From Silvanigrellaceae bacterium (GTDB lineage: Bacteria > Bdellovibrionota_B > Oligoflexia > Silvanigrellales > Silvanigrellaceae), in NCBI GenBank assembly GCA_049423385.1, contig JBMSQQ010000064.1, forward strand, positions 1-20,322: a DNA stretch of 20,322 bases, given 5' to 3'. Below are positions 1,679 through 20,101 of this stretch, piece by piece. Position 1 is the first letter of the stretch; each line of letters starts with the position of its first letter. Under the pieces are notes generated by a model. It worked only from the letters and a program-made list of their open reading frames with translations. It made no database searches and was not told the DNA's origin. The translations under genes and the position numbers were made by a program.

Positions 1679-3108
1679 TACCTTGATGACTTCGAGAGAA
1701 TCTTCAGCACCTCTGAACGAACAACGCCAAAATTGCTTGTGAACCATGCCGAAGCGGCTACGTTCTTCGCATTGAGTTCAGCGCAGCGACTGAAATTCTC
1801 CGCACTTTCTTTGGCAGCTTCCTGACCTTTTGCAGCCTGACAAAAACGGTCTCCCGTTTGAACAGCGAGTTTTTCAACGAACTGTTCCGAAAATTTTCTG
1901 TACTGGAGAGAAAGCCAGCTGGTCACTGACAAAAACTTTGCCTCGGCGGGCATGAGGCCGATGTCGGGCAGGTTCTGGTCATGGGTCACGAAGGTGTTTT
2001 CTTTCTCCTGGGCAAGCGACAACGACGACTCTTCCGCGGTTTTGGCCACGAGCTGCGCGTTCAGGCGCAGCTTTTCACGATGTTCAACGGCAGGATAATT
2101 GTAGGTTTTGGGTTCCATGCGGAACTTGGTCACGGGACGCGTCTTCTGCACCGGCCGTTCCACGGTTTGCTGTCGACCATCCTTGAAAACCGTGACGTAT
2201 TCCTTGTCGTCGTACTGCTCGTAATCCTGGTAGGGCACCTTGAGTTTGTAGGAATGGCTCTTGATGGTCGCCCGGGTCGAATAGTCGCGTGAATAGTCTC
2301 CCGACACGGCCAGGGTCAGGGTGTAAGGAGATTCAGAAGCATACAGGCCCACTGCCTGGATTCTCCCTTCGACCTCATTGCGGAGCAGCTCCATTTGCGT
2401 TTGCCCATTGCCATCAAAGTTTCGGAAATCGAGGTTGCCGGTAAAGACAATTTTCGAAAACCTGAAATCCTTCTGAGAATCCAATGGCACTCCAGACGGC
2501 GAAGAACCGTAATAAGCGCAGACGGCCTTGGAAACCGCATTGAACGAAAAGCTCGTGCTGCTCACCCACGCCTGGAGCGCCTGGCACAATTGCTGTCCTT
2601 CCTTTCGAATATCCTCGAGCAACTCTACCGAATAAGAACCAAATTGCTTGGCCTCGCGGATGTGGTCGAATTCATTCCAATAGGATGTCGCAACTATGGG
2701 CCGGTGCTCGCTGATTTTCTGTTGAATCATCGAGGTGAGAAGGCGACGGCCATTGCGCACTTCCTCCTCGGCGCTCACAAGCTCGCCGGATTGGAATTTG
2801 CTGACATCCCAGACCGAGATCTTCTCCAACAGTGTTTCAAGTCTTTCGAGTGCACCCTTGCCGTTGCCGGACATTCTCATCAGGCGAATTGACACCAATT
2901 CCTTGCGCCAGATTTCCGAGCGCGCCTTGGCCAATCCTATTTTTGCATCTGCATTGTCGGGCTCGGATTTCAAAATCTGCTCGTAGGCATCACCTGCTTC
3001 CTGAAAGAGTCCCGCTTCAAGCAATTTGTTGGCTTTGCCAAGTTGAGTGGTACAGCCGGCCAACGCAACGAATCCCAGGATGCCTGCAGAACGAATCATT
3101 TGATGCAC
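1678..3108 (-). CDS. Lipoprotein with N-terminal TPR-like repeat, function unknown
   Basis: GTG start with GGAGG; lipobox LAGC; TPR-like AGDAYEQILKSEPDNADAKIGLAKA. Confidence 0.75.
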   Translation of the reverse strand: MHQMIRSAGILGFVALAGCTTQLGKANKLLEAGLFQEAGDAYEQILKSEPDNADAKIGLAKARSEIWRKELVSIRLMRMSGNGKGALERLETLLEKISVWDVSKFQSGELVSAEEEVRNGRRLLTSMIQQKISEHRPIVATSYWNEFDHIREAKQFGSYSVELLEDIRKEGQQLCQALQAWVSSTSFSFNAVSKAVCAYYGSSPSGVPLDSQKDFRFSKIVFTGNLDFRNFDGNGQTQMELLRNEVEGRIQAVGLYASESPYTLTLAVSGDYSRDYSTRATIKSHSYKLKVPYQDYEQYDDKEYVTVFKDGRQQTVERPVQKTRPVTKFRMEPKTYNYPAVEHREKLRLNAQLVAKTAEESSLSLAQEKENTFVTHDQNLPDIGLMPAEAKFLSVTSWLSLQYRKFSEQFVEKLAVQTGDRFCQAAKGQEAAKESAENFSRCAELNAKNVAASAWFTSNFGVVRSEVLKILSKSSR

Positions 3109-3139
3109 TTAGAACCTCCACGCCATTCCCTCGGCGCAT

Positions 3140-3613
3140 TCAACTTTCTGCTTTCTTCCGTGCCTTCAAAAGTAGTCTGGTCAGGACGCGATCAAAGGCC
3201 TCGGCAAATTTCTTCTTGTCCAGGGCGCCATAGGCCGCTGGCCCTCCGGTCACCATGCCAGCCCCACGCAGCCCCTCCATGAGATCACGTGTGGCAAGAC
3301 GCTCGCCAATATTTCCGGAATCGAATTCTACACCGCGCCGGCTGATGGTCGAAACATTCTGCGTCACGCACCTGTGAGCCAGGGGAATATCGTCGGTCAC
3401 AACAAGGTCGTCGGGCGTTGCGTTGTCGGCGATGTAGTCGTCGGCAGCATTGAAGCCTTGGTTGACCACAATCATCTGCAAGTGAGGATGGGCTGGGAGT
3501 CGCACCCAACGGTCCGCCACCAGGACGACCGGAATCTGTGTCCGCAAAGAGGCCTTGAAGACGCACTCTTTCACATCATTTGGGCACCCATCCGCATCGA
3601 GCCAAATCCGCAT
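3140..3613 (-). CDS. yaiI: YaiI/YqxD family protein (DUF188, PIN-like)
   Basis: MRIWLDADGCP, FNAADDYI, DLVVTDDIPLA, NIGERLATRDLM, TGGPAAY motifs; 157 aa. Confidence 0.92.
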   Translation of the reverse strand: MRIWLDADGCPNDVKECVFKASLRTQIPVVLVADRWVRLPAHPHLQMIVVNQGFNAADDYIADNATPDDLVVTDDIPLAHRCVTQNVSTISRRGVEFDSGNIGERLATRDLMEGLRGAGMVTGGPAAYGALDKKKFAEAFDRVLTRLLLKARKKAES

Positions 3614-3819
3614 GTTCCTGTGTCACTCCCGTGGAAAGTGTTTTCCATTACTCTATATGCAAAATCGGCGAAATTCAGTCATTGGCCGAAATTCGACCAA
3701 CACCCGCTTCGGGACAGCACAATTCCGGCCAGCCAGCCTGTCGAGCATGGTCTGTTCAAATTTCGGCACATGGGAATCATGAGAATTTCTAATACCTGTT
3801 TGCTTGGCATGGTCATTGC

Positions 3820-3863
3820 TGTTGGTCGAACAGATGCTCGAAGCATCGACCAACAAAAAGGAG
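3820..3863 (+). promoter_or_regulatory. 5'-leader stem-loop abutting the RBS of the small peptide gene
   Basis: TGTTGGTC (3820-3827) pairs with GACCAACA (3848-3855); inner stem GATGCT/AGCATC (3833-3838/3842-3847); followed by AAGGAG (3858-3863). Confidence 0.5.
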
Positions 3864-3870
3864 TTATCCC

Positions 3871-4026
3871 ATGACAGTTCTATCCCTTGCACTCGCATTC
3901 GCTTCCAACAAAAAATCAAATAATGCCCGCCTCAGTCGCACCGCATCGGTCGAAAAGAACATCCGCGCCCTGAGACGCGTCGGTTCGACCCGGTTCGTCA
4001 TGATCGAAATGGGCTCACAGGGCTAA
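3871..4026 (+). CDS. 51-aa cationic peptide, putative RiPP precursor: MTVLSLALAFASNKKSNNARLSRTASVEKNIRALRRVGSTRFVMIEMGSQG
   Basis: Translated by hand (shorter than any ORF in the track). AAAAAGGAG 7 nt before ATG; TAA at 4024-4026; 52 nt upstream of and co-oriented with the HExxH gene. Confidence 0.75.
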   Translation: MTVLSLALAFASNKKSNNARLSRTASVEKNIRALRRVGSTRFVMIEMGSQG

Positions 4027-4078
4027 TCAAGAAGTCCTCATCCACCAACCCCAAATTCAGGATACACCGAGGAACAGC

Positions 4079-4981
4079 ATGCTTGGCCTTTATTCCTACC
4101 CCGAAATTTGCCAGTCGCTTTTGAATCTTGCCGACCCCGAAACATTGGCCGCCCATGGCTACACGAACCTTGGCCTTCGCATGGCAATCCAGGCCAGGGC
4201 TCAACAATTTGAGCCCGAGCTGCCAATCTGGAACACCGACAGTGCGGTGTTGATCGCTTCTAGCCAAAGGGAACTCGAAATGCGGCGACTGTTCTCGGGT
4301 CACAGCGAATTGAATGATCTTGGCCAAGCAACCGCGATCGACAGCTCCTTCTCGACAGAGGAACGAACATTCAAACTGCAACAGCTCCGAACGGCACTTG
4401 ATTTGATCAAATCACTGGATCCCAACCTGTCCGAAATTTTCCATGTTGTGGTCTCGTGCATTTTCACGTCCAGCTCATTAATGGCGGGAGGAGGAACATC
4501 CTCGGCAACGCCAGGAGTGATCTGGGCCAACCTGCGCCCGCACTGGAGCAGTTGGGATGTGGTTGAATTCCTGGTTCACGAGCTGACACACAATATTTTG
4601 TTCTTTGACGAATTCTCGGAGTTGCATTACCTCGACCACGCCAAGCTTTCGGATCCGACGACTTTTGCACAAAGCGCAATCCTCAAGCGCGCGCGACCGC
4701 TCGACAAGGTTTTTCACAGCATCATGGTCGGCATTGCGGTTTTGAACCTGCGAGCCAACTCTGTCCTGCAGTGCCACAACAATGGTTCATCACTTGCCAT
4801 GACCACAGGAATTCATCCCGACTCACTCACGCTGATTGCACAGATTCGCGCATCCATTGCATCTGTGGATGAGAACCGTCATGCACAAAGACTGCTCTCA
4901 GGCAGGGGCTTGGATTTGTTGAATCGGGCACGCCGTCGCATCGAGGAGTTTGCCAACGTTGGTGTCGCGCTGGCGATTTAA
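4079..4981 (+). CDS. aKG-HExxH-type peptide-modifying enzyme (putative Fe(II)/2-oxoglutarate peptide hydroxylase), stand-alone
   Basis: GGTSSATPGVIW strand, E-F-L-V-H167-E-L-T-H171, then SAILKRAR206P207LDKVFH213. This is the HExxH + RP + third His layout of the aKG-HExxH family. No signal peptide; GAGG RBS. Confidence 0.8.
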   Translation: MLGLYSYPEICQSLLNLADPETLAAHGYTNLGLRMAIQARAQQFEPELPIWNTDSAVLIASSQRELEMRRLFSGHSELNDLGQATAIDSSFSTEERTFKLQQLRTALDLIKSLDPNLSEIFHVVVSCIFTSSSLMAGGGTSSATPGVIWANLRPHWSSWDVVEFLVHELTHNILFFDEFSELHYLDHAKLSDPTTFAQSAILKRARPLDKVFHSIMVGIAVLNLRANSVLQCHNNGSSLAMTTGIHPDSLTLIAQIRASIASVDENRHAQRLLSGRGLDLLNRARRRIEEFANVGVALAI

Positions 4982-4997
4982 GTTTGGAGATTTTAAA

Positions 4998-6371
4998 ATG
5001 TTGCGAACACTCTTTTCCTCACCTGCATTTTTCCTTGCCTTGTTGTTTGTCATTCTTCAACAGGGAACCGTGGCGTCTTCCACATGGTTCCTTGCGCGTG
5101 TCACTGCAAACACGCAATCCACCTCTGAGGTTTTACCTTGGTTGGTGGGATTTTTGCTGAGTCTTGCGTTGCCCTATGTTCCCGGTGTTTTGGCTGTTCG
5201 CCAGGTGGCCCGGATGAAGAATTCGGCACAACGAAAGATCCTCGACCTTTTGCGAATTACCATCGAAGGCAAGACAACCCTCCTTTCCAACAAGGAGGAA
5301 CGGGAGAGAAGATTTGTCTTTCTCCAGCGTGAAGGCGAAGATTTTGTCGCACACTCGTGCGACGCCGGTTTCGATTTCACGCAAACAATTTTCAATGTCG
5401 TACTCAACATTGCAGCGCTTGTAATTGTTGTTCATCCGGCACTTCTTCCGGCCTATGTGGCAAGTTTGGCACTGATGAGTGCAGCCACACACCTTGGAAA
5501 GAATCCACTCACAACGGCAACCCGGGAACAACGCGAAGCCCTTGTGGGGTTCGACGCGGTTCAACTCACTGCCTGGGAAAACCTGACGATTGGCAATTCA
5601 ACCAACACATCGCGCTGGAATTCAACCCTTGAGTCACGGTTCGACAATCTGGCACAAAGACGCCTCAAACTCACAACCCTGCGCGAAATCACAAGTCTAT
5701 TGTCGACCTGGGCTGCAATGATTCCAGTCCTTGCTGCAAACATCTGGATGGTGACAAAAGCTTCATCCCCTGCCGAACTCGCTCTGCTTGTTGCAACCTT
5801 GCCCCGTCAGCTGATGGTGCTCAATCATCTGCACATCGTCAGCAGCTGGTCTGGATTTTTTCACGAACTGAGTGAGCGCTATCAGGGACTCAAAGCTGCA
5901 CTTTCAGAAGTTTCCGCGAACGCCCGAAGGGAACACGACAGCAACATCCGGTTCAACGAGCTTAAGATTTCGCAGGTGGGCGATTCAATCACCGCAGCTG
6001 GCCTCGAAACCGAAAGCAACCCCGAAAAGATGGCCTTCTGGGCGAAGAAGGCCCAGCAAGGACGATTCCGGATTGAGGGTGGCAATGGCACCGGAAAATC
6101 AACGCTGTTGCGCTCGCTGAAGGAGTCGCTGGGCCGTGATGCCTTTTATCTTCCGGCCGAACACTCCGCCCTCGATTTTCCGGTTGCCGGTGGCCTGAGT
6201 TCCGGACAACGTGCCCGCTCGATTCTCGAAAACCTCAAGATTTCAGCTCCGCGCGTGCTTTTGCTCGACGAATGGGATGCCAACCTGGATATGCACCATC
6301 GGAAATTGCTGGACCAGTTCATCAGCCAGCTCTCGGAAAAGCACCTGGTCCTTGAGGTCAGGCACAATTGA
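4998..6371 (+). CDS. ABC exporter, fused transmembrane domain + short ATP-binding domain
   Basis: ATG 4998 with GGAGA; about 5-6 hydrophobic segments; Walker A GGNGTGKST, signature LSSGQ, Walker B/D-loop LLLDEWDANLD, H-switch EVRH. Confidence 0.88.
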   Translation: MLRTLFSSPAFFLALLFVILQQGTVASSTWFLARVTANTQSTSEVLPWLVGFLLSLALPYVPGVLAVRQVARMKNSAQRKILDLLRITIEGKTTLLSNKEERERRFVFLQREGEDFVAHSCDAGFDFTQTIFNVVLNIAALVIVVHPALLPAYVASLALMSAATHLGKNPLTTATREQREALVGFDAVQLTAWENLTIGNSTNTSRWNSTLESRFDNLAQRRLKLTTLREITSLLSTWAAMIPVLAANIWMVTKASSPAELALLVATLPRQLMVLNHLHIVSSWSGFFHELSERYQGLKAALSEVSANARREHDSNIRFNELKISQVGDSITAAGLETESNPEKMAFWAKKAQQGRFRIEGGNGTGKSTLLRSLKESLGRDAFYLPAEHSALDFPVAGGLSSGQRARSILENLKISAPRVLLLDEWDANLDMHHRKLLDQFISQLSEKHLVLEVRHN

Positions 6372-6455
6372 TGAAGCCGATTGTTTCCGTGTGGCGACAA
6401 GTTTTGATACAAAACTCTTTCGCAGCTTCGCCACCGGAACACAAAAGGCAAAACA

Positions 6456-7934
6456 ATGTCCGAACAAAACCCAAAGTCATCGCCCGGCTGGAATCTTCAG
6501 CACAGCTACGCCGAACTTCCAGCTGTTTTTCATTCCAACGTGTCTCCCACTCCGGTGTCGAGTCCCCGGCTGGTGGTACTCAACAAGCACTTGGCTTCAA
6601 GCCTGGGGCTGAATGCAGAGCTTCTGGCTTCGGGTGAAAATGTGGAGATTTTTTCGGGCAACAGGTTGCCCGAAGGAGCAAACCCGATCGCACAAGCCTA
6701 TGCGGGACATCAGTTCGGCGGTTTCACGATGCTTGGCGATGGCCGGGCGATTCTGCTGGGCGAACAATCCACGCCCGAGGGCGACACGTTCGACATTCAG
6801 CTCAAAGGCCCGGGACCCACTCCCTATTCGCGTCGGGGCGATGGCAGGGCCGCACTCAAACCCATGCTTCGCGAATACATCATCAGCGAAGCCATGCACG
6901 GCTTGAATATTCCAACCACACGCAGTCTTGCCGTCGTCAGCACCGGTGAGTCTGTCATCCGCGAAGACATTCAACCTGGTGCAATCCTGACCCGTGTGGC
7001 ATCGAGCCATATCCGCGTCGGAACTTTTGAATTTGCGCGGGCACAGGGTCAGCCGGAAGATTTACATGCACTCATCGAGTACACCCTCATCCGGCATTTC
7101 CCGGAAGGCTTCGCCACCGAGAATCCAACCCTTGCGCTGCTTGAAGAAGTGGTTTCCCGGCAAGCGCACCTCGTTGCCCGCTGGATGCACTTCGGCTTCA
7201 TCCACGGAGTCATGAACACAGACAATATGTCGATTTGTGGCGAGACCATCGACTACGGCCCCTGCGCATTCATGGACACCTACAACCCCGCGACCGTTTT
7301 CAGCTCCATCGATCGCGAGGGGCGCTACGCGTATGCGAACCAGCCGCGCATTGCCTTGTGGAACCTCGAGAGATTTGCCGAAACACTCCTGCCCTTCTTG
7401 GACGAGTCGGAAGACAAGGCCGTCGAAACAGCGCAAAACGCGTTGGAAAGCTTTGCCGACATCTACAACGAAGCATGGCTCAACGGCATGCGTTCGAAAT
7501 TGGGATTGTTTGACGCGATGCCGGAAGATTCAGCCCTGGTGACAGAATTCCTTGGCTTGCTGCACAAGACCAATTCCGATTACACCAATTCATTTCGCTC
7601 GCTCACACAGTACCCCACGGGTTTTCCCGAAAGCCCGCTCTTTTCGTCTGCGGAATTTTCAGCTTGGAACAAAAAATGGAGCGAACGTAGACAACAGCAA
7701 CACAAATCCGAGAAATATGTGGTTGAACTGATGCGGCGCAACAGTCCAAGCGTGATTGCCCGCAATCATCGGGTTGAGGAAGCACTTTCTGCCGGCGAGA
7801 AAGGCGATATTGCGCCAATGGAACGGCTGCTCAAGGTGTTGGCAACACCTTTTGAAGACTCTGTCGAGCATGCCGAATTCAGCCGCGAACCCGGACCAGA
7901 CTTCATCGGCTACAAAACGTTTTGTGGCACTTGA
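6456..7934 (+). CDS. selO: Protein adenylyltransferase SelO (YdiU/UPF0061 family)
   Basis: YAGHQFG, LGDGRA, QLKGPGPTPYSRRGDGRA, PTTRSL, GFIHGVMNTDNMSI, IDYGPC, C-terminal TFCGT. Confidence 0.96.
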   Translation: MSEQNPKSSPGWNLQHSYAELPAVFHSNVSPTPVSSPRLVVLNKHLASSLGLNAELLASGENVEIFSGNRLPEGANPIAQAYAGHQFGGFTMLGDGRAILLGEQSTPEGDTFDIQLKGPGPTPYSRRGDGRAALKPMLREYIISEAMHGLNIPTTRSLAVVSTGESVIREDIQPGAILTRVASSHIRVGTFEFARAQGQPEDLHALIEYTLIRHFPEGFATENPTLALLEEVVSRQAHLVARWMHFGFIHGVMNTDNMSICGETIDYGPCAFMDTYNPATVFSSIDREGRYAYANQPRIALWNLERFAETLLPFLDESEDKAVETAQNALESFADIYNEAWLNGMRSKLGLFDAMPEDSALVTEFLGLLHKTNSDYTNSFRSLTQYPTGFPESPLFSSAEFSAWNKKWSERRQQQHKSEKYVVELMRRNSPSVIARNHRVEEALSAGEKGDIAPMERLLKVLATPFEDSVEHAEFSREPGPDFIGYKTFCGT

Positions 7935-7939
7935 ACCGA

Positions 7940-8416
7940 TTATTCGCAGACCAATTCTTGAAAGCCGGAAAGACTTGGAGCAGAGAAGTGCTCCTGCATT
8001 TCGTCAAGAAAAATATCGCTGGCACCCGAGCGTTCACGCAATTTGCGCAAAACTTCGGCCAGACGCTCGATTTGCTCGTCGCTCCATTCTTCACCCGGCT
8101 TGAAATCAATCCTCAGGGCGTTCTCCAAAACTCCCAATCCCAGGTCGGGCAATCCGTAGGATTTCTTCACCAACAAATGTCGCCCAGATTCCACCATCTG
8201 GATAATCTCCTGCAGCGTGTACTTGTCTGAAAGCAATTCACGCTTGCGGGAGCCTTCGCGAGCCATGGAACTCGCAGCCAGATTGGCGTTGGCAATCAGA
8301 ATACCGATGGCTTTTCTGAGTCCTTCCGGCGACGCAAATGACAGCGAAATTTCTGGAAGCGTGCCATCGAATTCTCTCATCTGTTGCTTGAAACATTCCA
8401 CGTTGTCCATATCCAT
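7940..8416 (-). CDS. Hypothetical acidic protein (158 aa)
   Basis: Protein-like composition; fills the gap between selO and the protease; no recognised motif. Confidence 0.6.
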   Translation of the reverse strand: MDMDNVECFKQQMREFDGTLPEISLSFASPEGLRKAIGILIANANLAASSMAREGSRKRELLSDKYTLQEIIQMVESGRHLLVKKSYGLPDLGLGVLENALRIDFKPGEEWSDEQIERLAEVLRKLRERSGASDIFLDEMQEHFSAPSLSGFQELVCE

Positions 8417-8552
8417 GTTTCTTTCCCGCTGGCTGAAAAATTCAAATCAGAATCGAATGAAGGGATTCCCACTCCTCCAGATTAACCCCAGACAATCATG
8501 GAGCCAACAACAACAATCCGCCACGCACTGGAAACAATGCCCGGTTTCATTT

Positions 8553-9341
8553 ATGAATCTCAACATGAGAAAATCATTCGTCTTGAATTCCATGATTGCG
8601 AGTCTTTTGGCGGGCTGTGATGGCGGTTTTGCACCCCATCCGGAAGCCGACCATTTCATGCCGAAGTCATTGAAAAATCAGGATGTGGAAGAAAAAATCA
8701 TCGGCGAAAACAATCTCATTCCGGTGACCGCGAGCGCCGACAACCTCCCGGTCGAAATGCGCCATCTTGTTGACGCTGTAGGCCAACTCAACTTGGGCTG
8801 CACCGCAACCCACATCGGTTCCGGTCTCGTTCTGACCGCAGGTCATTGCATTTCAAAAAGCCCACGCAGCAGCACAAACAGCTGCAGACATCTTGGCGTG
8901 GTTTGGGGAAATCGTGGGGGCAATACACAGCTCTCGGCTTCCAAATGCCTGGAAGTGAAAATACGGGTCTACAATGACACCCTCGATTATGCGCTTTTGA
9001 AAGTTGAGAACCCGCCCGCTGCCTTCATTCCGGTTGAAACTGAGCCGACAACACTCACCACGCCCGCGACGATGTTGAGTCACCCACGCATGCGACCGCT
9101 CGAGTGGTCTGGAATTTGCGGATTGTCCGTTTACGAAGATCCAAAGCGTGCATCGGAAAAATTCTTCCACTCGTGCGATTCCGAAGGCGGAAGCAGTGGT
9201 GCAGCAATATTGTCGCGCGAGTCATTGCGAATCATTGGAATTCACAATGGTGCCAGCGACGAACTCAATTATGGAATTTTCATCACAGCAATAACTGATC
9301 TTGCAAAGTTGATCACCTCGGCAGACATGGTGGCACACTGA
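8553..9341 (+). CDS. Trypsin-like (S1) serine protease lipoprotein
   Basis: Lipobox LLAGC; KIIG pro-peptide junction; catalytic triad motifs LTAGHC, DYALL, CDSEGGSSGA. Start is 8553 or 8565, not 8217. Confidence 0.88.
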   Translation: MNLNMRKSFVLNSMIASLLAGCDGGFAPHPEADHFMPKSLKNQDVEEKIIGENNLIPVTASADNLPVEMRHLVDAVGQLNLGCTATHIGSGLVLTAGHCISKSPRSSTNSCRHLGVVWGNRGGNTQLSASKCLEVKIRVYNDTLDYALLKVENPPAAFIPVETEPTTLTTPATMLSHPRMRPLEWSGICGLSVYEDPKRASEKFFHSCDSEGGSSGAAILSRESLRIIGIHNGASDELNYGIFITAITDLAKLITSADMVAH

Positions 9342-11191: not shown

Positions 11192-11995
11192 TCACTTGGC
11201 CGCGGGAAGCGCTGAATACATTTTATTGATGCCATCAATGTCGAGCTGGTTTGGCCAAACAATACCTTTTTCATAGTCGAAATTACGGTAAAAACAGCGC
11301 TCCATGAACGATGTTGGATTCCAGGGGCCAATCTGCCTGTCACCAGCTTGCGGATTCTCGTCGAATTCAACGCACTTGTTGTCCGAATGCGCATCTTCAT
11401 GACGCATGCCAATCGCGTGGCCAAACTCGTGAAGACTTGACGAAATCATCAGATTCTTTTTTCCGACCGCGCTCAGCCGATTGCGGATGTCGTTGAAATA
11501 GGGACTCGCATCCCGCCCTGTCATGCTCAAGATGATTCCCGCTCTTCTTCCAAGCAACCAATTCTTCGCGTTGGCCGTGTCGACATTGATACGGGGATGA
11601 CCAGGGTAACCCGCGAGAGCCCTGTTTGTTGAGACCACGAAAGATTTCGTCTCGCGGTATTTGGGATTCGAACCGCTCCCGGGGTCATCATAGATGAATA
11701 TTCTGAAGTCGGCGCCATAGCCGCCGTCTGGACAAGCCCCCCATCCAGTGAACCTCAATTTTGTTTTTGCAAACGCCTTGCTGACAGTCGATTGAAATTC
11801 GCTGCGGAAGTCCTGGGTGTCATCCGAAATCACTTCCCAACACACGGAAACATTTGAGCTCCTCAATTTCGAGGTGGCATAAAAGATCGATTCAACTTGT
11901 GAATCGCCACCTTCTTTCAGTGAGGGACGACAGCCGTTTGCCAGAATCGCAGCCGTCAGCAGAAAGCCAACTGCAGAAAAATACCGAGGATTCAT
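11192..11995 (-). CDS. Secreted zinc metalloprotease lipoprotein (metzincin-like)
   Basis: Lipobox-like LANGC; HEFGHAIGMRHE (HExxHxxGxxH) zinc motif; Met-turn-like SFME; DIDGINKMY C-terminal helix; GGAGG RBS. Confidence 0.85.
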   Translation of the reverse strand: MNPRYFSAVGFLLTAAILANGCRPSLKEGGDSQVESIFYATSKLRSSNVSVCWEVISDDTQDFRSEFQSTVSKAFAKTKLRFTGWGACPDGGYGADFRIFIYDDPGSGSNPKYRETKSFVVSTNRALAGYPGHPRINVDTANAKNWLLGRRAGIILSMTGRDASPYFNDIRNRLSAVGKKNLMISSSLHEFGHAIGMRHEDAHSDNKCVEFDENPQAGDRQIGPWNPTSFMERCFYRNFDYEKGIVWPNQLDIDGINKMYSALPAAK

Positions 11996-12101
11996 TGCAG
12001 AACCTCCAATTGCCCACTTCGCTCAATTCAAAAAGACGAGAAGCGTATCGGAGTTTCACTGATGAAAAATTATTGAAATCAAAAATTACCCAGTAAGTCC
12101 A

Positions 12102-12115
12102 AGCGGATATCCGCT
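12102..12115. promoter_or_regulatory. Perfect 14-bp palindrome AGCGGATATCCGCT (operator or weak hairpin)
   Basis: Self-complementary; lies between the rfbD stop and the metalloprotease start. Confidence 0.3.
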
Positions 12116-12129
12116 ATAAAACTCAAAAA

Positions 12130-13026
12130 TCAAGAGATTTTTTGTACCATTTCGAGCTGGTCTTTCCAGTCCGGAAGACGAACACCAAACGTGGTCGCAC
12201 ACTTGTCATTGGAGAGAATCGAATTGGCAGGACGCTTGGCCGGAGTTGGATATTCAGCCGTTGAAATGGGTATGACTTGTTTGCATTTGATTTCGTCCTG
12301 GCGTGGATCGCTTGCAACAATTTCACGTGCGAAGTCGAACCACGAACACGAACCCGCTGCACTCATGTGATAAACCCCACTGCGGGCACCCACGAATTCC
12401 ATCAGCGCTCCCTCCTTGCCGACAAGCCCCTGAGCAACAATCTGTGATGTTGCCAAAGCAATCATGCGGCTCCAGGTCGGTGAACCCAGCTGGTCTTTCA
12501 CCACTTTGAGTTCCTCTCGCTCACGCGCCAACCTGCGCATGGTCTTGTAGAAGTTGGCGCCAAAATGTCCGTAAACCCAGGCGGTGCGAAAAATAAAATA
12601 GGCACAGCCGCTGTTGCGAATTGCTTCTTCACCCTCAAGCTTTGTGCGGGCATAGACGCCTTGTGGTCCGGTGGGATCGGTCTCTTTCCAGGGAGCACTT
12701 CCACTGCCGTCGAAGACGTAGTCGGTTGAATAATGAACCAATGGGATTGCTGATTTTTTACTCAGTTCTGCAAGCAGTGCAACCGCATCCACGTTCAACA
12801 ACTTTGCCGCATCCGGCTCACTTTCAGCCTTGTCGACAGCCGTGTAGGCCGACGCGTTGATCAGCAAATCCGGGCGAAAATCAGCAACAAGTGCACGAAT
12901 TTTGGCAGGATTGGTGGCATCCGCAAGTTCACGCCCGGCGCACAACACCTGACCCAACGTCGGCAGGGTTTGAGCCAATTCGTTTGCCACTTGTCCGTTG
13001 CGTCCCACGACCAAAATCCGTTTCAT
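12130..13026 (-). CDS. rfbD: dTDP-4-dehydrorhamnose reductase
   Basis: ATG 13026 with [55 protein letters not shown]. Confidence 0.96.
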
Positions 13027-13105
13027 GCCTGTCCTCCGCAGGGTCTGCAAAGCCCCAAACTTGGAGCAAACTCTGCCATGTGGTACGCAACAAGTCACGA
13101 TTGTG

Positions 13106-13138
13106 TGTGGAAAACATGTGGAAAACCCGTGGAGAGAC
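13106..13138 (+). repeat. Direct repeats TGTGGAAAAC x2 plus a degenerate third copy, 11-bp period, DnaA-box-like
   Basis: TGTGGAAAA at 13106-13114 and 13117-13125 (reverse complement TTTTCCACA fits TTWTNCACA); CGTGGAGAG at 13128-13136. Confidence 0.5.
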
Positions 13139-13139
13139 T

Positions 13140-14186
13140 ATGAACAAGACCATTCTTGTGACCGGCGGAGCAGGCTTTATTGGCTCAGCCGTTGTGCGCC
13201 ACCTCATGGCCAGCAGCGATTACAACATCGTCAACGTCGACAAGCTCACCTACGCCGCATCTCCCGAATCGGTCGGAAACGCACAAAACAGCTCGCGCTA
13301 CACACTTCTGCAAACAGACATTTGCGACCTCGCTGCACTGCGCAAAGCGTTTTCCACCCATCGCCCGGCAGCGGTGATGCATCTTGCCGCCGAAAGCCAC
13401 GTCGACCGTTCAATTTCGGGTCCTGGCGCCTTTGTGCAAAGCAACATCGTTGGCACCTACAACATGCTCGAAGCCGCCCGCGAATATTGGAACGGCCTTT
13501 CGGAAGGCGACAAGCGCAGCTTCCGCTTTCATCACATTTCAACCGACGAAGTGTTTGGAACGCTGGGCGACTCCGGATACTTCACAGAAACCTCGCCGTA
13601 TCAACCAAACTCGCCTTATTCCGCGAGCAAGGCATCTTCCGATCACCTCGTGCGTGCATGGCATGAAACGTTTGGATTGCCTGTTTTGGTGACCAACTGC
13701 TCCAACAATTACGGCCCATGGCAAGCCCCCGAAAAACTCATTCCGGTGGTGATTCTTTCGTGCCTGAATGGCAAACCGATTCCCGTGTATGGCGAAGGCA
13801 AAAATGTACGCGACTGGTTGTTCGTGGATGATCACGCACGTGCGTTGGTCTCCGTGGTTGAAAAAGCAACGCCTGGGAGCACCTGGAACATCGGCTGCCA
13901 CAACGACGTTCCCAACCTCACCATCATTCGCAAAATCTGCGCGCTGATGGACGAACTCTCACCCAACAAGGCGAAAGTGAAAAAGCACGAAGACCTGATT
14001 TCTTTCGTGAAAGATCGTCCTGGGCATGACTTCCGCTACGCCATCGATCCGAAAAAGATCGAAACCGAACTGGGCTGGAAGCCGCTTGCAGATTTCGACG
14101 CTCACCTGCGCACGACTGTGAAGTGGTACCTCGAGAACCAAGCTTGGTGCGACAAGGCGCTGGCACGAATCAAAAGCGGGATGTGA
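13140..14186 (+). CDS. rfbB: dTDP-glucose 4,6-dehydratase
   Basis: ATG 13140 with [66 protein letters not shown]. Confidence 0.97.
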
Positions 14187-14231
14187 TTTCGCGGAAAGTA
14201 AGTCTACGGCAGGCGATTCCGCGCATTCCAA

Positions 14232-14840
14232 TCAGAGCTTGAAATATTCCATCACCTTTGTGGCGAACGAAAAAGCCACGCTTGCGACCGAAATGAAATA
14301 ACCCCAACTGGTCAAGTGAAACAGGTGGCCAAGCACGACCATCAAACCGTCGCGCATCAAGAATCCCAATGAAAAAAATGTGATTGCCAACGCGGGAAGA
14401 GTGTTGGTGAATGGAATCACCGGAGGAATGGGCAGCGCAAGTGCAATGGCTGCCAGAATCATGGCCACCGTGGCCAAGACCTTCGAGATTCCCGACACCA
14501 GATATTCGGCCCGAGGCTTGAGGTATTTTTCAATGCGTACAGCGTAGCTGTGACTCTTCTCGGCGAGCATCGAAACGGTCTTGCCGCTCAGCGTGATGCG
14601 ATCGGCGAGCTGCGGCAGTGGCAATGGTCGCGGCCAGCCAATTCGAATCGTCAGCAGGATGATCGCAAAGCCAAATGCCGTCGAAATTCCAGGAATGGGC
14701 ATTGGAAAAAGAAATGGAAGACACAGAAATATAATCGTCAGAGGAGCTCCATCATCGCCAAAGAGCTCGTCTATGCGACGCAAGGTCAGAGTCGATTCCG
14801 GATGCACGCTTCTCATTGTTTCCAAACGCTTCGAAACCAC
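14232..14840 (-). CDS. exoD: Exopolysaccharide synthesis ExoD family membrane protein
   Basis: LPFLFPMPIPGISTAFG, RIEKYLKPR, LPIPPVIPFTNTLPA, LMRDG motifs; probable GTG start at 14840 (start uncertain). Confidence 0.85.
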   Translation of the reverse strand: MVSKRLETMRSVHPESTLTLRRIDELFGDDGAPLTIIFLCLPFLFPMPIPGISTAFGFAIILLTIRIGWPRPLPLPQLADRITLSGKTVSMLAEKSHSYAVRIEKYLKPRAEYLVSGISKVLATVAMILAAIALALPIPPVIPFTNTLPALAITFFSLGFLMRDGLMVVLGHLFHLTSWGYFISVASVAFSFATKVMEYFKL

Positions 14841-14977
14841 GTCGTCCCCCAAAACAATCCTGACGCCAATAGATAATTCAGGAACCAAACAGAACGCAAA
14901 TCAATGTCGCCGATGAGGCACAGTCTTGATTCCTGAAAAGATTGTGAAACCAACACTCCGCCTTGCACCCCGATTGA

Positions 14978-16057
14978 ATGAAGCTGCCTTGGAAGTCCGC
15001 TCAACAGTTTACAGGGAGCCCAACCTTGTCATCGGAAAAGCCGACCAAACAAACCGACATTTGGAAAGGACTGAGCCTGCTGGGCCTCACATTCAATCAT
15101 CTCTTGCTTTGGCCTTGCAGCAACCTCTCGTTCGCCTTGAACTTCACTTATCAAAGTGTTGGATGGGTGTCGTTTGCCTCTGTTTTCTTTGCCATTGCCG
15201 GAATCCAGTGGGGACGCCGGGCGGAAAATCAAACACCCCAACAACTATTACACTGGAATTTCAAAAGAGCGATCAAACTCTTTGCCTGGGTGGGTTGTGC
15301 CACCGCCATTTTCACTCTCGCAAATAGGACGTCTCTTCTTGAACCGGCTCCATGGCAACGACACTTGATCTGGAATGCACCCTCAACAGTTCTGAGGGCG
15401 ATTGCAGGTTTCCAGCTGCCCTGGCTTTTGGACGTCATTTGGCTACACGCCTGGCTGGGTGTGTATGCAACAATTCTTTGGAGCTTGCCCAAAATCCGCA
15501 GCTCCTCTCTTTGCATCGCGCTTGCCAGTGCCAGTGTCTGGCTGCTTTCGCAGGCCGGCTCCTTCGACTTCCAATCTCAACTGTTCAGTGCACCTTCATG
15601 GCATGCATGGACAGGATGGCAGCTCTTGTTTGTGGGCTGCGCACTGAGCCAACGCCCGGATGTTCAGGCTATTGTAAGCCATTTTCAAAAGAACAGTGCG
15701 CGGTTGATTATCATTATCGCCGCCATTGCGCTTTTGATATCGAAGCACACCCTGAGCAAAGCAAACGTCGACCCGTTTCTACAAACTCAAAAATTTGGAC
15801 CTTTATTTGCAACCAACACAGTCTGTTTTTGCCTGCTCTTGGGCGAACAAAAATTTCCGCGCATGCCAAACATCGTTGCAACGTTCGGGAAAAGAAGCCT
15901 GCTTTTCTACTCGATGCAGTGCGTGGTCATTTATACACTTGGAAGCCACACCACCTTTGCTCAAAATCAAAAAATCTTGTCGCTCTGCTTCGTGATTTTT
16001 GTATGTTTGGCATTGCCCGCATTCTGTTGGCTTTTTGTTCGGCGGAGGTCCCGATGA
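14978..16057 (+). CDS. opgC: OpgC-like membrane acyl(succinyl)transferase (AT3-related)
   Basis: DIWKGLSLLGLTFNH (cf. DxxRGLALxxIxxxH), GWVSFASVFFAIAG, WQLLF, GKRSLLFY; about 10 TM segments. Confidence 0.65.
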   Translation: MKLPWKSAQQFTGSPTLSSEKPTKQTDIWKGLSLLGLTFNHLLLWPCSNLSFALNFTYQSVGWVSFASVFFAIAGIQWGRRAENQTPQQLLHWNFKRAIKLFAWVGCATAIFTLANRTSLLEPAPWQRHLIWNAPSTVLRAIAGFQLPWLLDVIWLHAWLGVYATILWSLPKIRSSSLCIALASASVWLLSQAGSFDFQSQLFSAPSWHAWTGWQLLFVGCALSQRPDVQAIVSHFQKNSARLIIIIAAIALLISKHTLSKANVDPFLQTQKFGPLFATNTVCFCLLLGEQKFPRMPNIVATFGKRSLLFYSMQCVVIYTLGSHTTFAQNQKILSLCFVIFVCLALPAFCWLFVRRRSR

Positions 16058-17031
16058 ATCTTCGCTCTCTTCGTCAGAGAAAAAATATCATTGTCGCGGC
16101 CGACACACAGGCCTTTGCGACTGTTGTCAGAAATTCCGACACAGCATGGCGCAACCGCACCCAGGTGATTCCAATTGCATGCACGCAGGAAGTGGTGAAT
16201 GTCCTTCCCAATTCAAGGAATACTCTGATCGTCGTGGATCCCCATTGCAAACTTGATCGCGCGCAGGAAGACCTCATCAATGAAACACTCGCGTGTGGAG
16301 CACAATGGTGCACGCTGAGCATGTATGAAGGCATCCAGAAAGGAATCGCCAATATCCGAGGTTTTTCGGATGTGTTGGAATGGGTTCATTGGCAAGACCA
16401 CTCTTTGGCAGAACACCTGTGGGACAAAACCACATGCCTTGCCCGGAGACTCACAGCTCTCGGGCTTCTCATGACACTCTCGCCGCTGATGGCAGCTCTA
16501 TGGGTCTGCATCCGAATCACCAGCCCCGGACCTGCACTTTTCAGGCAGCGACGCGTGGGTCACCACGGAAAACAATTTGAGCTCGTCAAATTCAGAACAA
16601 TGCACCTCAATGCCGAGGCAAATGGACCGCAATGGAGCAAGGGAGACGAAGACCCAAGGCTCTTCCCTCTTGGAAAGTTTCTGCGAAAAACGCATCTCGA
16701 TGAACTTCCTCAGCTGTGGAACATTCTTTGCGGACATTTGTGCTTTGTGGGTCCGCGACCCGAGCGACCCGAATTCCACGATTGGCTCAAGAATCACATC
16801 CCGCATTTCAATATAAGAACGCGCGTGAGGCCAGGACTGACTGGCTGGGCGCAACTCAAATCGGGTTATGCATCGAGCGTCGAAGAATCCAAGACAAAAG
16901 TGGCGCACGACATCTTTTTCATTCGTTCGAAACAGACTCATCTTGTTGCATTGATTGTCATCCAGACTGCCCGCAAATGCCTGTTTGAAATTCTCTCGTC
17001 TGTTTTCAGTCGAATAAAAAAAGTGCGGTGA
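16054..17031 (+). CDS. Priming sugar transferase (phosphoglycosyltransferase, Bac_transf family)
   Basis: ATG 16054 (ATGA overlap, GGAGG RBS); SPGPALFRQRRVG, KFRTM, DPR, GKFLRKTHLDELPQL, VGPRPERP, RPGLTGWAQ. Confidence 0.92.
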   Translation: MNLRSLRQRKNIIVAADTQAFATVVRNSDTAWRNRTQVIPIACTQEVVNVLPNSRNTLIVVDPHCKLDRAQEDLINETLACGAQWCTLSMYEGIQKGIANIRGFSDVLEWVHWQDHSLAEHLWDKTTCLARRLTALGLLMTLSPLMAALWVCIRITSPGPALFRQRRVGHHGKQFELVKFRTMHLNAEANGPQWSKGDEDPRLFPLGKFLRKTHLDELPQLWNILCGHLCFVGPRPERPEFHDWLKNHIPHFNIRTRVRPGLTGWAQLKSGYASSVEESKTKVAHDIFFIRSKQTHLVALIVIQTARKCLFEILSSVFSRIKKVR

Positions 17032-17055
17032 AAAGTTACCCACACGGAGCTGAAC

Positions 17056-18177
17056 ATGCAGGTCGTTCATGTGCTCAACTGCGGAACTGTCAGTGGCCCC
17101 GAGATGCTCGTGCTGCCGGAGTTGGCCAACTTTCCCTGTTACACCGTCGTATGGAATCTCGCTGAAAAACGCATAAAGTCGGCCTTCGACCCGCTCGCGC
17201 GTCTCTGTGCGACGTTGAAGGTTCCCGTTTTGTCGTTTGAAATTTCATCAAGATTCGATGTTTCGGCAATTCTCAATTTGACCCGCACACTCGAGACACT
17301 GCCGGATGGTGCCATTGTTCATACACATGACGTCAAAGCCAGCATTTATGTCTGGTTGGCAAGCTTTCTTGTAAAGCGACGCAAATTGCATTTTGTGGCG
17401 ACTCACCATGGCGCCATGGCAAGACCCAATCGACTTTCGCGCATGTACGAGCGTCTTTTTGTTTCGCTTGCAGGCCATTGCGTGGACCTGTTTCTCTGTG
17501 TGAGTGAAAGCGAATACGACCTCCTCACCTCTCGCGGATTTCGAGCTTCAATCTTGCGTCTTCACCGCAATGGCATCGAGCGTCCGTTGTTGAAATGGTC
17601 CGAGCGCAGGGCTCTGTCAAAAGGTGAAAAATTGAAACTGCTGATGGTGGCGCGTCTTTCTCCCGAGAAGAACCACGCCCGTGCACTGGCGGTTCTCCAG
17701 AAGTTCAATTCCCTTTTCGAAGGTCAATGGAGTCTTGACATCTTCGGCAACGGCTCACTCTTTGATGAACTTCAAAATTCGGTTCACTCGGCTGGGCTCC
17801 ATCGAAAAGTATTCTTTCGAGGTTATCTTCAGGAAGCCTGGAGGGAATTTGATTCCTACGACTGCCTCCTGATGTTTTCAACCGGCGAGGCAATGCCCAT
17901 CACCTTGCTCGAAGCCGGATGGCGCTGCACACCGGTGTTCTCCTCTGCTGTGGGTGGAATTCCTGAAGTCTGTGGTCCGGAAGGCGGTCGGCTGTTTCAA
18001 CTTGAGGAATCCGACGATTCCATTGCCCGGAAGCTTCTCGATTTTGTTTCAAGCAAAGAACTTGTTCGCCGCACCGCCGAACGTTTACAGGAGAGGGTCA
18101 CCACACATTTCTCAGGTCGTCGTTGGCGCAATGAACTCTTGACCCACTACAACGGATTGCTGGGAGCAGACCAATGA
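17056..18177 (+). CDS. Glycosyltransferase family 4 (GT-B fold)
   Basis: IVHTH, ATHHG, CVSE, HRNGI, VARLSPEKNH, EAMPITLLEA, VGGIPE. Confidence 0.92.
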   Translation: MQVVHVLNCGTVSGPEMLVLPELANFPCYTVVWNLAEKRIKSAFDPLARLCATLKVPVLSFEISSRFDVSAILNLTRTLETLPDGAIVHTHDVKASIYVWLASFLVKRRKLHFVATHHGAMARPNRLSRMYERLFVSLAGHCVDLFLCVSESEYDLLTSRGFRASILRLHRNGIERPLLKWSERRALSKGEKLKLLMVARLSPEKNHARALAVLQKFNSLFEGQWSLDIFGNGSLFDELQNSVHSAGLHRKVFFRGYLQEAWREFDSYDCLLMFSTGEAMPITLLEAGWRCTPVFSSAVGGIPEVCGPEGGRLFQLEESDDSIARKLLDFVSSKELVRRTAERLQERVTTHFSGRRWRNELLTHYNGLLGADQ

Positions 18178-19043
18178 GACTCTTTTACTTCTTCATTTCA
18201 CTCCTGGTCTGTGCTGGCATTGAAACGACGCTTCTTGCCAATGGAGCAGCCCAGACATTGGCGCCCGGAAGTGTTATCAGACTCTCTTCCGCAAATGAAC
18301 AGAGTATGAACGTGACCATCGAACTCGATTGGAACGGCGACGCCGCTGTACCATTGTGTGGAAAAATGCGTCTTGCAGGGCTATTACCGGATGATGCTCT
18401 TGAAGAACTTCGTCTTTGCCTCGCTCGTTTTTTCAAAAAAAAGCTGGAGCTCTCGATTCAGGAAACAAGTCCGCGTCAGCTCGCCATTCGCATTGGCAAA
18501 CGCGGAGAAGCTCCTAAAGAAATTCGTGCTGCAGAGCGGGTATCGATTGCTTCGCTGATGGCGAAGGAGGGTCTGCCTGTTGAGGAGAAGACGATCATCC
18601 GCCTGCTGTCTCCTTACGGAATGGACCTTGTTGCCTCCGCGACATCCAAGGTTTGGTCGCAGCCTTTTCAATGGCGCGGGGGCGAGTCGGTTGTTGTCGA
18701 GACAGCATCTGACCTCAAGACAAACGAAAGCTTCGACGTGCTTGGCGAAGTGCGAAAGCCAGGAAAGTATCAGTACAAGCCATCGCAAACAGTCATCGAT
18801 GTGCTGAGGGATGTTCAAGGCCCCACCCCGCAGGCCAGTTTTGATTCGGTCTTTATTTATCGCCATATGAAGAGCGAAAAAATCGAGACGACCTGGGACG
18901 ACAAATCCCACAAGATAGAACCCGGTGACATCATCCTCGTGCCCAGTCAAAAAGAAGGTGTGTTCGACAAAAGCCTCAGGTGGAGCAGTTCTATTCTTGC
19001 CATCGTCAACACCATGTTCCTCATCCTGCTTGCCCGACGGTGA
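18174..19043 (+). CDS. Polysaccharide export protein, Wza-like (Poly_export + SLBB domain)
   Basis: LAPGSVIRL...DWNGDAAVPLCGKMRLAGL; VLGEVRKPGKY; IEPGDIILVP; C-terminal hydrophobic/amphipathic helix; ATGA overlap with GT4. Confidence 0.85.
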   Translation: MRLFYFFISLLVCAGIETTLLANGAAQTLAPGSVIRLSSANEQSMNVTIELDWNGDAAVPLCGKMRLAGLLPDDALEELRLCLARFFKKKLELSIQETSPRQLAIRIGKRGEAPKEIRAAERVSIASLMAKEGLPVEEKTIIRLLSPYGMDLVASATSKVWSQPFQWRGGESVVVETASDLKTNESFDVLGEVRKPGKYQYKPSQTVIDVLRDVQGPTPQASFDSVFIYRHMKSEKIETTWDDKSHKIEPGDIILVPSQKEGVFDKSLRWSSSILAIVNTMFLILLARR

Positions 19044-19048
19044 GCGGA

Positions 19049-20101
19049 ATGAACCTCTTTCTTCTTGCAACCCACATCTTCTGGGAGACGATCAGGCACA
19101 GAAAGAAAATATTCCTGTCTGTTTTTCTTTTGATTTTTGCAATCACGGCATTCGTGATTCGCAAACTTCCAAAGCGATACCAATCCACTGCCCTGTTCAA
19201 CTTCCATTCCGATTTCTCAAAAGTTCCCGCCAGCAGCGAGTTCTACAGCGAAATGTACGACCCAAATGAAATTCGGGCAGAAAAGGAAGCAATTCTACTG
19301 GGAGTGCTGTCGGATGATTTTCTTTTTGAGACGGCAGAAAAATATCTGGGGTCGGATGCGGCAAATCACGAGTGGCTCGTCCAAGGTCTGCGCAAGGACA
19401 TTCGCTTCGTGCCTTTGAGCAGAACAACATACCAACTCGTTGTTATTCAGCGTTCGCCAGACGATGCCGAGAAAATAGCCTGGGATGTGGTCGAACAGCT
19501 CGAGCAAAATCTTCGCAGCGAACGACTCATCCGCATGCAGGCTGTTTATGAATCCATCACGCAACAACTCAATGAACTCACCATTGGCGAACAAGACAAA
19601 AACGTTGCTGTGCAGTGGGATGCGGCACGTCTCAAAATAGAAAATGAGATTCACAAACTTGAGTCACTCTACACTGCGGAACATCCGCGACTGATAAGGC
19701 TCAGGGCTCAATTGGAAAATTTGCGCGGTGCAAAGCAAATGAACAACACAGGCCCTCTTGCCAAAGGGCACCTTGAGAACTGGGCATCCCTGCGTGGCAT
19801 TCTCATCACACGGCAGGCCCTCCTGCAGGTCGCGATTCGCATGGAAGAAAAGGGTTCCATTTCACACATCAAGCTCGTCAAGGAACCAGACCATCCTCTT
19901 TGGCCAGTGGAGCCCAAAAAGAAACTCCTGCTTGTCTCGGCGGCAATCACGTCCACTGTTGTGGCAGCGGCAGTGTCTGCTTGCTGCAGCGTGGCTTCCG
20001 ACATTCATGCTCTGTTTCCCCATCTGAAGGATTCCTGGAAGCGCTTTCGAAGCGCGATCGCTGAAAGGAAGAAAAATACCAGTGACCGGGAGGATTCCTG
20101 A
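19049..20101 (+). CDS. Polysaccharide chain-length determinant / co-polymerase (Wzz/GumC-like)
   Basis: N-terminal TM followed by PKRYQSTA; coiled coil with YTAEHPRL; Pro-rich EPDHPLWPVEPKK before a second TM. Start is ATG 19049 or GTG 19040. Confidence 0.85.
   Translation: MNLFLLATHIFWETIRHRKKIFLSVFLLIFAITAFVIRKLPKRYQSTALFNFHSDFSKVPASSEFYSEMYDPNEIRAEKEAILLGVLSDDFLFETAEKYLGSDAANHEWLVQGLRKDIRFVPLSRTTYQLVVIQRSPDDAEKIAWDVVEQLEQNLRSERLIRMQAVYESITQQLNELTIGEQDKNVAVQWDAARLKIENEIHKLESLYTAEHPRLIRLRAQLENLRGAKQMNNTGPLAKGHLENWASLRGILITRQALLQVAIRMEEKGSISHIKLVKEPDHPLWPVEPKKKLLLVSAAITSTVVAAAVSACCSVASDIHALFPHLKDSWKRFRSAIAERKKNTSDREDS

Follow-up and report, generated by a model that had tools for sequence, protein, structure and literature searches.

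A three-gene, sigma54-type cassette in a Silvanigrellaceae genome probably encodes a small ribosomal peptide, a stand-alone HExxH oxygenase and an exporter

The aKG-HExxH enzymes were recognized only in 2024. According to the portions of PMC13060819 and PMC12636437 that describe them, their ribosomal peptide substrates are modified at His, Asp, Phe, Gln and Pro residues, and one of the enzymes also cuts the peptide backbone oxidatively. ChlB-HExxH, as presented in part of PMC12636437, is fused to a radical-SAM cyclophane synthase, hydroxylates Asp and His, and needs a pre-installed cyclophane. In the PflC/PosC systems of Pseudomonas, a run of Gln residues is beta-hydroxylated and the C-terminal ARMD is cut off oxidatively, leaving an amide (PMC12636437, section on these enzymes). 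BpmH/BipH belong to biphenomycin biosynthesis and have a Phe-derived substrate residue, and PesO, from the nitrilobacillins, hydroxylates Pro, as given in the corresponding passages of PMC13060819, PMC12257519 and PMC12707348. In all four published systems (ChlB, BpmH/BipH, PflC/PosC and PesO), the HExxH enzyme is one of several enzymes, at least in the parts of PMC12636437 and PMC13060819 that deal with them, and the reactions of the family, in the words of one section of PMC13060819, "at present cannot be predicted".

We analyzed a 20,322-nucleotide stretch of DNA from a Silvanigrellaceae bacterium (hereafter the window), which corresponds to contig C64 of a 3.47-Mb assembly of 183 contigs (G000). 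A short open reading frame (ORF) of 51 codons (P0001) is followed 52 nt downstream by a gene for an HExxH protein (P0002) and then by an ABC protein gene (Table 1). Comparative genomics, selection analysis and structural modeling make it probable that the three genes work together as a cassette under sigma54 control, the first yielding a small ribosomal peptide, the second modifying it and the third exporting it, with a product whose chemistry is a prediction. The cassette is bordered upstream by a DUF188 gene on the opposite strand and downstream by SelO, a trypsin-like gene and an SMR pump. Neither a sensor kinase nor a binding protein is encoded next to it. Farther along, positions 11192-20322 carry an ordinary surface-polysaccharide set that includes an RmlD-like reductase, an NAD-dependent dehydratase, ExoD, an undecaprenyl-phosphate sugar transferase, a GT4 glycosyltransferase, a Wza-like exporter and a Wzz-like protein, and a 267-aa ORF at 11192-11995 (minus strand) gave only a faint matrixin-like match.

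Table 1. Positions, in the window, of the cassette genes, their control elements and the segments of the candidate peptide.
Feature	Position	Strand	Basis or remark
Sigma54-type -24/-12 element, TGGCAT-N5-TTGCT	3805..3820	+	51 nt before ATG; upstream alignment
Ribosome-binding site AAAAAGGAG	3855..3863	+	ends 7 nt ahead of the peptide ATG
Candidate precursor peptide gene P0001, 51 aa	3871..4026	+	ATG 3871, TAA 4024-4026
Peptide: N-terminal docking segment, residues 1-12, M-[TS]-x-L-[ST]-x-x-L-x-x-A-[SA]	3871..3906	+	pN/pS, complex model
Peptide: unconstrained linker, residues 13-25	3907..3945	+	pN ~ pS; hypervariable in alignments
Peptide: recognition helix, residues 26-36, S/A-V-[ED]-x-N-I-x-A-L-R-x	3946..3978	+	alignment, complex model
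Peptide: candidate core RFVMIEMG, residues 41-48 (modification site inferred)	3991..4014	+	near-invariant in near clade
Peptide: variable tail SQG, residues 49-51	4015..4023	+	alignments; absent from confident model contacts
Stand-alone aKG-HExxH-type peptide oxygenase P0002, 300 aa	4079..4981	+	TIGR04267; HELTH codons 4577-4591
ABC exporter, 457 aa, six long helices and a compact nucleotide-binding domain	4998..6371	+	homologue starts

The class-level and phylum-level samples consisted of the same 131 genomes, and the enzyme profile matched in 11 of them at E <= 1e-5. A co-linear ORF of 41 to 51 aa with a ribosome-binding site was present directly upstream of the HExxH gene at nine other loci (G012, G003, G009, G007, G010, the metagenomic locus L013, G123, G060 and G065), with AGGAG-, GGAGG- or AAGGA-type sites at the matching place. 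At the five same-genus loci G012, G003, G009, G007 and G010 and at L013, the ORF encodes 43 to 51 aa that are 27-59% identical to the window peptide. The peptide gene, the HExxH gene and the 457-aa ABC gene occur together in G000, G012, G003 and G009, and likewise at L013, where the contig ends inside the ABC gene. More distant cassettes combine a 47-aa peptide, an enzyme and an MFS exporter (G123) or, in another family, a 41-aa peptide, a 289-aa enzyme and an ABC protein of 451 or 458 aa (G060 and G065). The three genes travel together while the genes that flank them change from locus to locus. Two other metagenomic contigs were seen, one with the same peptide and promoter sequences as G003 (L014) and one that is cut inside the peptide gene (L012). 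G014 and G049 were left out of the cassette count, the former for its in-frame stop and other context, the latter for its larger MNIO operon. In G014, a weak HExxH-like match with an in-frame TAA lies on the minus strand of contig C26 at about 5056-5733, with an MFS gene upstream, and may be a broken relative (L025). In G049, the RiPP-type operon on contig C115 at about 2690-8640 (L026) contains an MNIO of the MbnB/TglH/ChrH family, PhyH and TauD dioxygenases, a weak HExxH-like protein and an MFS protein.

Kin of the peptide proved few and closely related. A search with the single peptide sequence found only itself, and neither Pfam nor NCBIfam gave a match. The exact 51-aa product is nevertheless present in a protein collection, and a 57%-identical homologue is deposited at NCBI as a hypothetical protein. 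A profile built from nine peptides recovered 18 small proteins in public collections, all within the three known clades, and scans of genome contigs and metagenome contigs yielded close relatives only (four and three loci, respectively). Longer or fused forms of the peptide were searched for and none was found, a null result of little weight.

The codon pattern of the ORF was analyzed in five 51-aa orthologues (10 pairs). Codons 26-48 showed pS values of 0.50-0.85 against pN values of 0.02-0.32, and codons 1-11 gave pS 0.38-0.83 and pN 0.08-0.40, while the two measures were about equal in codons 12-25 (pS 0.55-0.92, pN 0.37-0.79). Variable sites at codon positions 3, 1 and 2 numbered 43, 31 and 24. 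This pattern suggests that the peptide frame is translated, with both ends constrained and the linker free. Because the same ORF with a strong ribosome-binding site recurs at nine other loci and pS exceeds pN in codons 26-48, we regard the ORF as a gene; on these comparative sequence grounds, it is real and under protein-level selection. Amino acid conservation in syntenic loci was clear, and the refuting condition named in the sequence-only reading of this DNA, the absence of such conservation, did not apply. Many small ORFs arise by chance, and the frame might be untranslated or might act on the HExxH gene solely in cis, as an upstream regulatory frame. We disfavor this explanation as scarcely credible, since it has to contend with region-specific purifying selection on the amino acid sequence, with a ribosome-binding site, length and frame kept in 10 loci, with the 18 related small proteins listed by gene callers in public data, and with a predicted binding model that passes against controls (see below). 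No RNA run was found that contains the locus. DNA contigs from a second study did not differ from the window in the peptide ORF, with five differences across positions 3700-5100, of which two are non-coding (3744 and 4051) and three are inside the enzyme gene.

All the features that had been read from the sequence were found again. The ribosome-binding site AAAAAGGAG is spaced from the ATG as had been claimed, the stretches TVLSLALAFA, SVEKNIRALRRVG and RFVMIEMGSQG are all part of the 51-aa translation, and the peptide contains nine Lys/Arg and two Glu residues, with no Cys, Trp, Tyr, His or Asp and no Gly-Gly. It also lacks Pro, and its single Gln falls in the variable tail. Its cationic character applies to the window peptide and does not extend to the family: near-clade peptides have net charges between +7 and 0, and those of the two distant clades carry -5 and -2. 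A signal peptide at the hydrophobic N-terminus was considered by eye and rejected: the complex model has this segment docked on the enzyme, and residues 2-11 are amphipathic in the homologues, the window copy alone being hydrophobic.

The region ahead of the peptide gene is conserved as well. Alignment of the upstream sequences revealed the motif TGGCAY-N5-TTGCT, which we take to be the sigma54 -24/-12 consensus and which matches once in the window, versus 0.12 matches expected. The element precedes the peptide ORF in nine of 10 distinct loci (G000, G012, G003, G009, G007, G010, L013, G065 and G060), its start lying 64-71 nt from the ATG, and these alignments indicate that a promoter element in front of the peptide gene is conserved. 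The exception is G123, which has TTGACA-N17-TAATAA instead, as judged by eye. An rpoN gene is present on contig C13 of G000 (RpoN, 408.7 bits; cut-off, 277), and the genome contains 24 TGGCAY-N5-TTGCW sites versus four for the reversed control; a sigma54-type regulon is present in this genome. No activator (enhancer-binding) gene was found next to the cassette. A simple sigma70 scan of positions 3500-6500 gave no promoter, and an Rfam scan of the window gave no match. An RNA hairpin or attenuator in the 52-nt spacer between the peptide and enzyme genes was also considered and dismissed (z-score, 0.03).

The HExxH protein matched NCBIfam TIGR04267 (IPR026337) with 60.5 bits (cut-off, 40; E 2.1e-16) over 125 of the 177 profile positions, and a six-frame search with the same profile (61.4 bits) identified it as the only TIGR04267 gene in the genome, unfused to any other domain; Pfam gave no match to the protein. 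The HELTH motif occupies residues 167-171, with H167 and E168 found in 59 of 60 aligned relatives and H171 in 58, and the HExxH motif and at least 20 further near-invariant residues are common to all three clades. The AlphaFold2 model of the enzyme (pLDDT 94) was most similar in Foldseek to chains of 8s5f, the ChlB HExxH crystal structure (E 3.7e-8; TM of about 0.5 over 220 columns, identity of about 15%), followed by 22ob (SjiH). A search of the PDB with the enzyme sequence profile returned nothing significant. Profile and predicted fold together place the neighboring enzyme in the aKG-HExxH family. Its relatives form 382 clusters at 50% identity (E <= 1e-10), mostly of 280-300 aa.

HExxH is also the classical metalloprotease motif, and the protein could in principle be a zincin-type peptidase that processes or destroys the peptide, either as a leader peptidase or for immunity, the product then being an unmodified secreted cationic peptide. 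Several observations would fit such an enzyme: PflC hydrolyzed a truncated substrate (as described in part of PMC12636437), weak fold matches to M1 and other zincins appear below the top matches, and the window peptide is cationic and amphipathic. However, the profile match is to the oxygenase family and exceeds the curated cut-off, and 8s5f and 22ob are the only strong fold matches (E <= 1e-5), with M1 and other zincin peptidases at E of about 0.1 or higher. The positive charge is, moreover, not conserved in the distant clades, and the peptide has neither a signal peptide nor a double-glycine site. We therefore rate the peptidase explanation as very improbable and retain the oxygenase assignment.

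A model of the peptide bound to this putative oxygenase was next considered, with Fe and with alignments of the enzyme (60 rows) and the peptide (10 rows) as inputs. The complex reached ipSAE values of 0.91, 0.91 and 0.90, versus 0.00-0.02 in three controls, and the runs agreed in at least 64% of contacts, with a partner pLDDT of at least 73. The ipSAE mark is reached by 116 of 157 solved complexes and two of 215 mismatched pairs, counts that are only approximate here because our own alignments were used and Fe was included. In the model, the enzyme is touched by peptide residues 2-9, 11-12, 20-21, 23-24, 26-28, 30-31, 33-35 and 37-46. Peptide residues 2-9 and 11-12 contact enzyme residues 7-30 and 115-123, and the lowest-error pairs join V27, E28, N30, I31, L34 and R35 of the peptide to enzyme residues 40-44 and 178-182. 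The contact list of the enzyme also includes 135-143 (the Gly-rich loop), 164, 167-168, 171, 207, 209-210, 213 and 245. Peptide residues 37-46 touch the HExxH region, as read from contact lists without coordinates, and residues 47-51 are not among the confident contacts. The central helix, which had been proposed as the recognition element, is the best-placed docking element in this prediction, and a second docking segment appears beside it at the peptide N-terminus. Binding and its geometry are thus supported by the model, and the earlier suggestion that the peptide is a candidate substrate of the adjoining aKG-HExxH enzyme gains from the complex model, synteny and conservation alike. By synteny, selection and modeling, a RiPP-type precursor is the most likely identity of the 51-aa ORF.

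A natural comparison is offered by a lineage that has lost the catalytic residues. The G007 enzyme homologue (L005/L011) is 45% identical to the window enzyme and has GCISK where the latter has HELTH. Twelve of 25 sites that are near-invariant over 60 relatives are replaced in it, including H167, E168, H171, R206, K210, H213 and H246, and R40-Q43, D177 and E178, against which the peptide helix is held in the model, are retained. Its peptide, 43 aa long, ends after R41 and has no counterpart of residues 42-51, and the locus has no exporter gene, SelO being directly next. P0022 is a second diverged HExxH-less protein. The HExxH-less, apparently catalytically dead lineage, to which the G007 locus and the proteins P0022, P0023 and P0014 are assigned, has an open frame, the docking residues and a peptide reduced to its leader. 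It may be a pair that now only binds, without catalysis, or it may be beginning to decay. Since it keeps the enzyme frame and the peptide leader, binding might have a non-catalytic role.

These observations bear on whether the small protein could accompany the HExxH protein as a stable partner or a regulatory subunit, such as a clamp, chaperone or inhibitor, rather than serve as its substrate, and not be exported. The predicted interface is very large, with 133-147 contacts that involve about 40 of the 51 peptide residues, in the dead-site lineage the enzyme frame is still open and both sides of the docking contact, enzyme residues and peptide segment, are retained, and the conservation of the "core" is unusual for a RiPP, all of which would suit a permanent partner. 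On the other hand, residues 37-46 follow the HExxH and Gly-loop residues in a substrate-like manner in the model, the lineage without the catalytic residues is precisely the one that lacks block 42-51 and the exporter, and an ABC or MFS exporter gene comes next in every intact-enzyme locus with downstream sequence. The characterized family members, as covered in parts of PMC12636437 and PMC13060819, all modify peptides. A pure partner role is thus distinctly unlikely in our judgment, and a precursor that is bound, modified and exported remains the preferred reading.

The distribution of conserved residues helps to separate leader from core in this candidate precursor. Among ten near-clade peptides, M1, L4, L8, A11, N30, I31, L34 and R35 are invariant and T2, V27, A33, R41, F42, V43, M44 and G48 nearly so. 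Helix 26-36 is retained in every near-clade peptide, including those with another core or with none. The sequence-only reading had named the terminal EMGSQG as the candidate core and had asked whether an xGSQG-like tail is the conserved part. When short ORFs upstream of HExxH genes were aligned, as it had recommended, the helix and RFVMIEMG proved conserved and the xGSQG tail did not. Residues 49-51 differ among homologues (SQG, SMG, ARA and ART), P0013 has 16 residues after the Gly, and the conserved block is R41-G48, which is highly conserved rather than hypervariable. Ser49 and Gln50 are poor candidates for modification because residues 49-51 vary. In G010, the peptide (L007:1300-1455; L007/L027) keeps the leader and has all codons of residues 41-48 replaced without a frameshift; its partner enzyme is truncated after 34 residues by the contig end. 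At the level of sequence, a kept leader with a swapped core is the leader/core pattern of RiPPs. The G007 and G010 patterns thus suggest that core, catalytic residues and exporter go together, whereas the leader goes with the docking site, a co-loss seen in a small sample of kin genomes, namely one genome with DNA context and two proteins without context.

The relation between the near-clade and distant-clade peptides is less firm. The only match across clades is [RKQ]-[FY]-[VN]-M-I, which pairs RFVMI with RYNMI (hhalign E 0.1, a weak match), and homology between near and distant peptides, based on synteny and this five-residue match, is weakly supported. MAFFT gives another register between the clades, in which KNIRAL is set against YNMIAY and N30 faces the Asn of YNMIA/FNMIA. 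We tentatively favor the hhalign register (RFVMI with RYNMI) because it leaves a stretch that can reach the active site in all clades, whereas in the MAFFT register the distant peptides would have nothing that reaches it.

The third gene is likely to serve export. Its longest ORF spans 4950-6371, and homologues begin at the residue that matches its M17 (ATG 4998). The ABC proteins of G060 and G065 are 28% identical to the window protein and share its short form. The nucleotide-binding domain is unusually compact: in the numbering of the long ORF, Walker A lies at 377 and the LSSGQ signature follows at 416, with just some 30 residues between the two motifs, while Walker B is found at 437 and the switch His at 472. 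BmrCD, the PCAT1 core and MsbA, its structural matches, exceed the protein in length by about 110 aa, and these fold matches are only indicative because model confidence was low (pLDDT 64). Pfam and NCBIfam revealed no peptidase domain on the ABC protein, and the window peptide showed neither Gly-Gly nor another cleavage motif for leader removal. No protease was consistently linked to the cassette across the compared loci. The trypsin-like gene at 8217-9341 (plus strand) was considered as a leader peptidase and rejected because it is unlinked to the cassette, being elsewhere in G003, G009, G007 and G010. This gene has no NCBIfam match and several paralogues in the genus, and in G012 alone it stands in the same place, with stop codons.

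We propose that the 51-aa product would be the substrate, that is, the precursor, of the stand-alone Fe/alpha-ketoglutarate HExxH oxygenase. Residues 1-12 and helix 26-35 would act as a leader that grips the enzyme at two places, its N-terminal helices (about residues 7-44) and the end of the HExxH helix at D177-E178-F179. Residues 37-46 would thereby be drawn along the Gly-rich loop (135-143) and across the metal site formed by H167, E168, H171 and H213. At least one residue of R41-G48 would then be oxidized, most likely by beta-hydroxylation, after which the ABC protein would export the product. Phe42 would be the first candidate target, followed by Met44, Ile45 and Glu/Asp46. Phe42 is the most conventional choice because Phe is a reported substrate and the position is F or Y across clades in the favored register. 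The oxidation of the peptide, the residue concerned, the removal of the leader and the role of the product are all inferred. It had been argued from the sequence that the peptide lacks the residues hydroxylated by characterized enzymes; it indeed has no His or Asp, but the argument is outdated, as Phe, Gln and Pro now count among the substrates (PMC13060819, in its account of the family). New chemistry by the HExxH enzyme is possible without being required.

A more far-reaching version of the same proposal would see in the cassette an undescribed RiPP family whose single, class-defining enzyme is the HExxH protein, with chemistry new to this enzyme family, a sigma54-controlled exported signal and a sister module that binds without catalysis. 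We consider this version doubtful. In it, an unactivated aliphatic or thioether side chain might be oxidized at Met44 or Ile45, which are invariant across clades, or the backbone might, speculatively, be split oxidatively at the conserved Gly48. Scission at Gly48, if true, would remove the variable tail of 3 to 16 residues and leave a C-terminally amidated ...RFVMIEM.

A search of article full texts found no paper on the cassette or the peptide family. If the proposed pathway is correct, the cassette would be a minimal system of one 51-aa peptide, one enzyme, one exporter and one promoter, with a leader and a core that are clearly separable and with natural controls in the dead-enzyme lineage and the core-swapped peptide. 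It would offer a directly testable case, with a peptide free of Asp, His and Pro, for an enzyme family whose reactions are unpredictable, and since the relatives of the enzyme fill 382 clusters, the answer may apply to a large unexplored group.

Among the described systems, ChlB-HExxH and the ChlH-type enzymes of cyclophane/triceptide-type RiPPs share with the window enzyme the NCBIfam family, the best structural match and a ribosomal peptide substrate, which in the window is a candidate. Unlike ChlB, which is fused to a radical-SAM enzyme, the window enzyme stands alone and its peptide has no Asp or His; no Radical_SAM match, as would be expected of a radical-SAM/SPASM maturase by the cassette, was found among the 20 window ORFs scanned. 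The PflC/PosC enzymes with their substrates PflA/PosA are similar in that a stand-alone aKG-HExxH enzyme acts on a leader-bearing peptide near its C-terminus, that the residues beyond the conserved C-terminal block can vary with little consequence, and that the cluster has transporters and no protease gene, just as the window cassette has no linked protease. In contrast, PflA has a nitrile-hydratase-like (NHLP-type) leader, a Gln run and an ARMD end, whereas the window peptide has one Gln and no ARMD, and the PflC cluster adds an MNIO-nitroreductase and a GNAT, both absent from the window cassette. PesO and BpmH/BipH are, like the proposed activity, aKG-HExxH tailoring hydroxylases of RiPPs, but in the systems as partly covered by their sources, they are accessory to MNIO, rSAM, peptidase and other enzymes. 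The window HExxH enzyme would be the sole tailoring enzyme of its cassette and, therefore, the one that defines the product.
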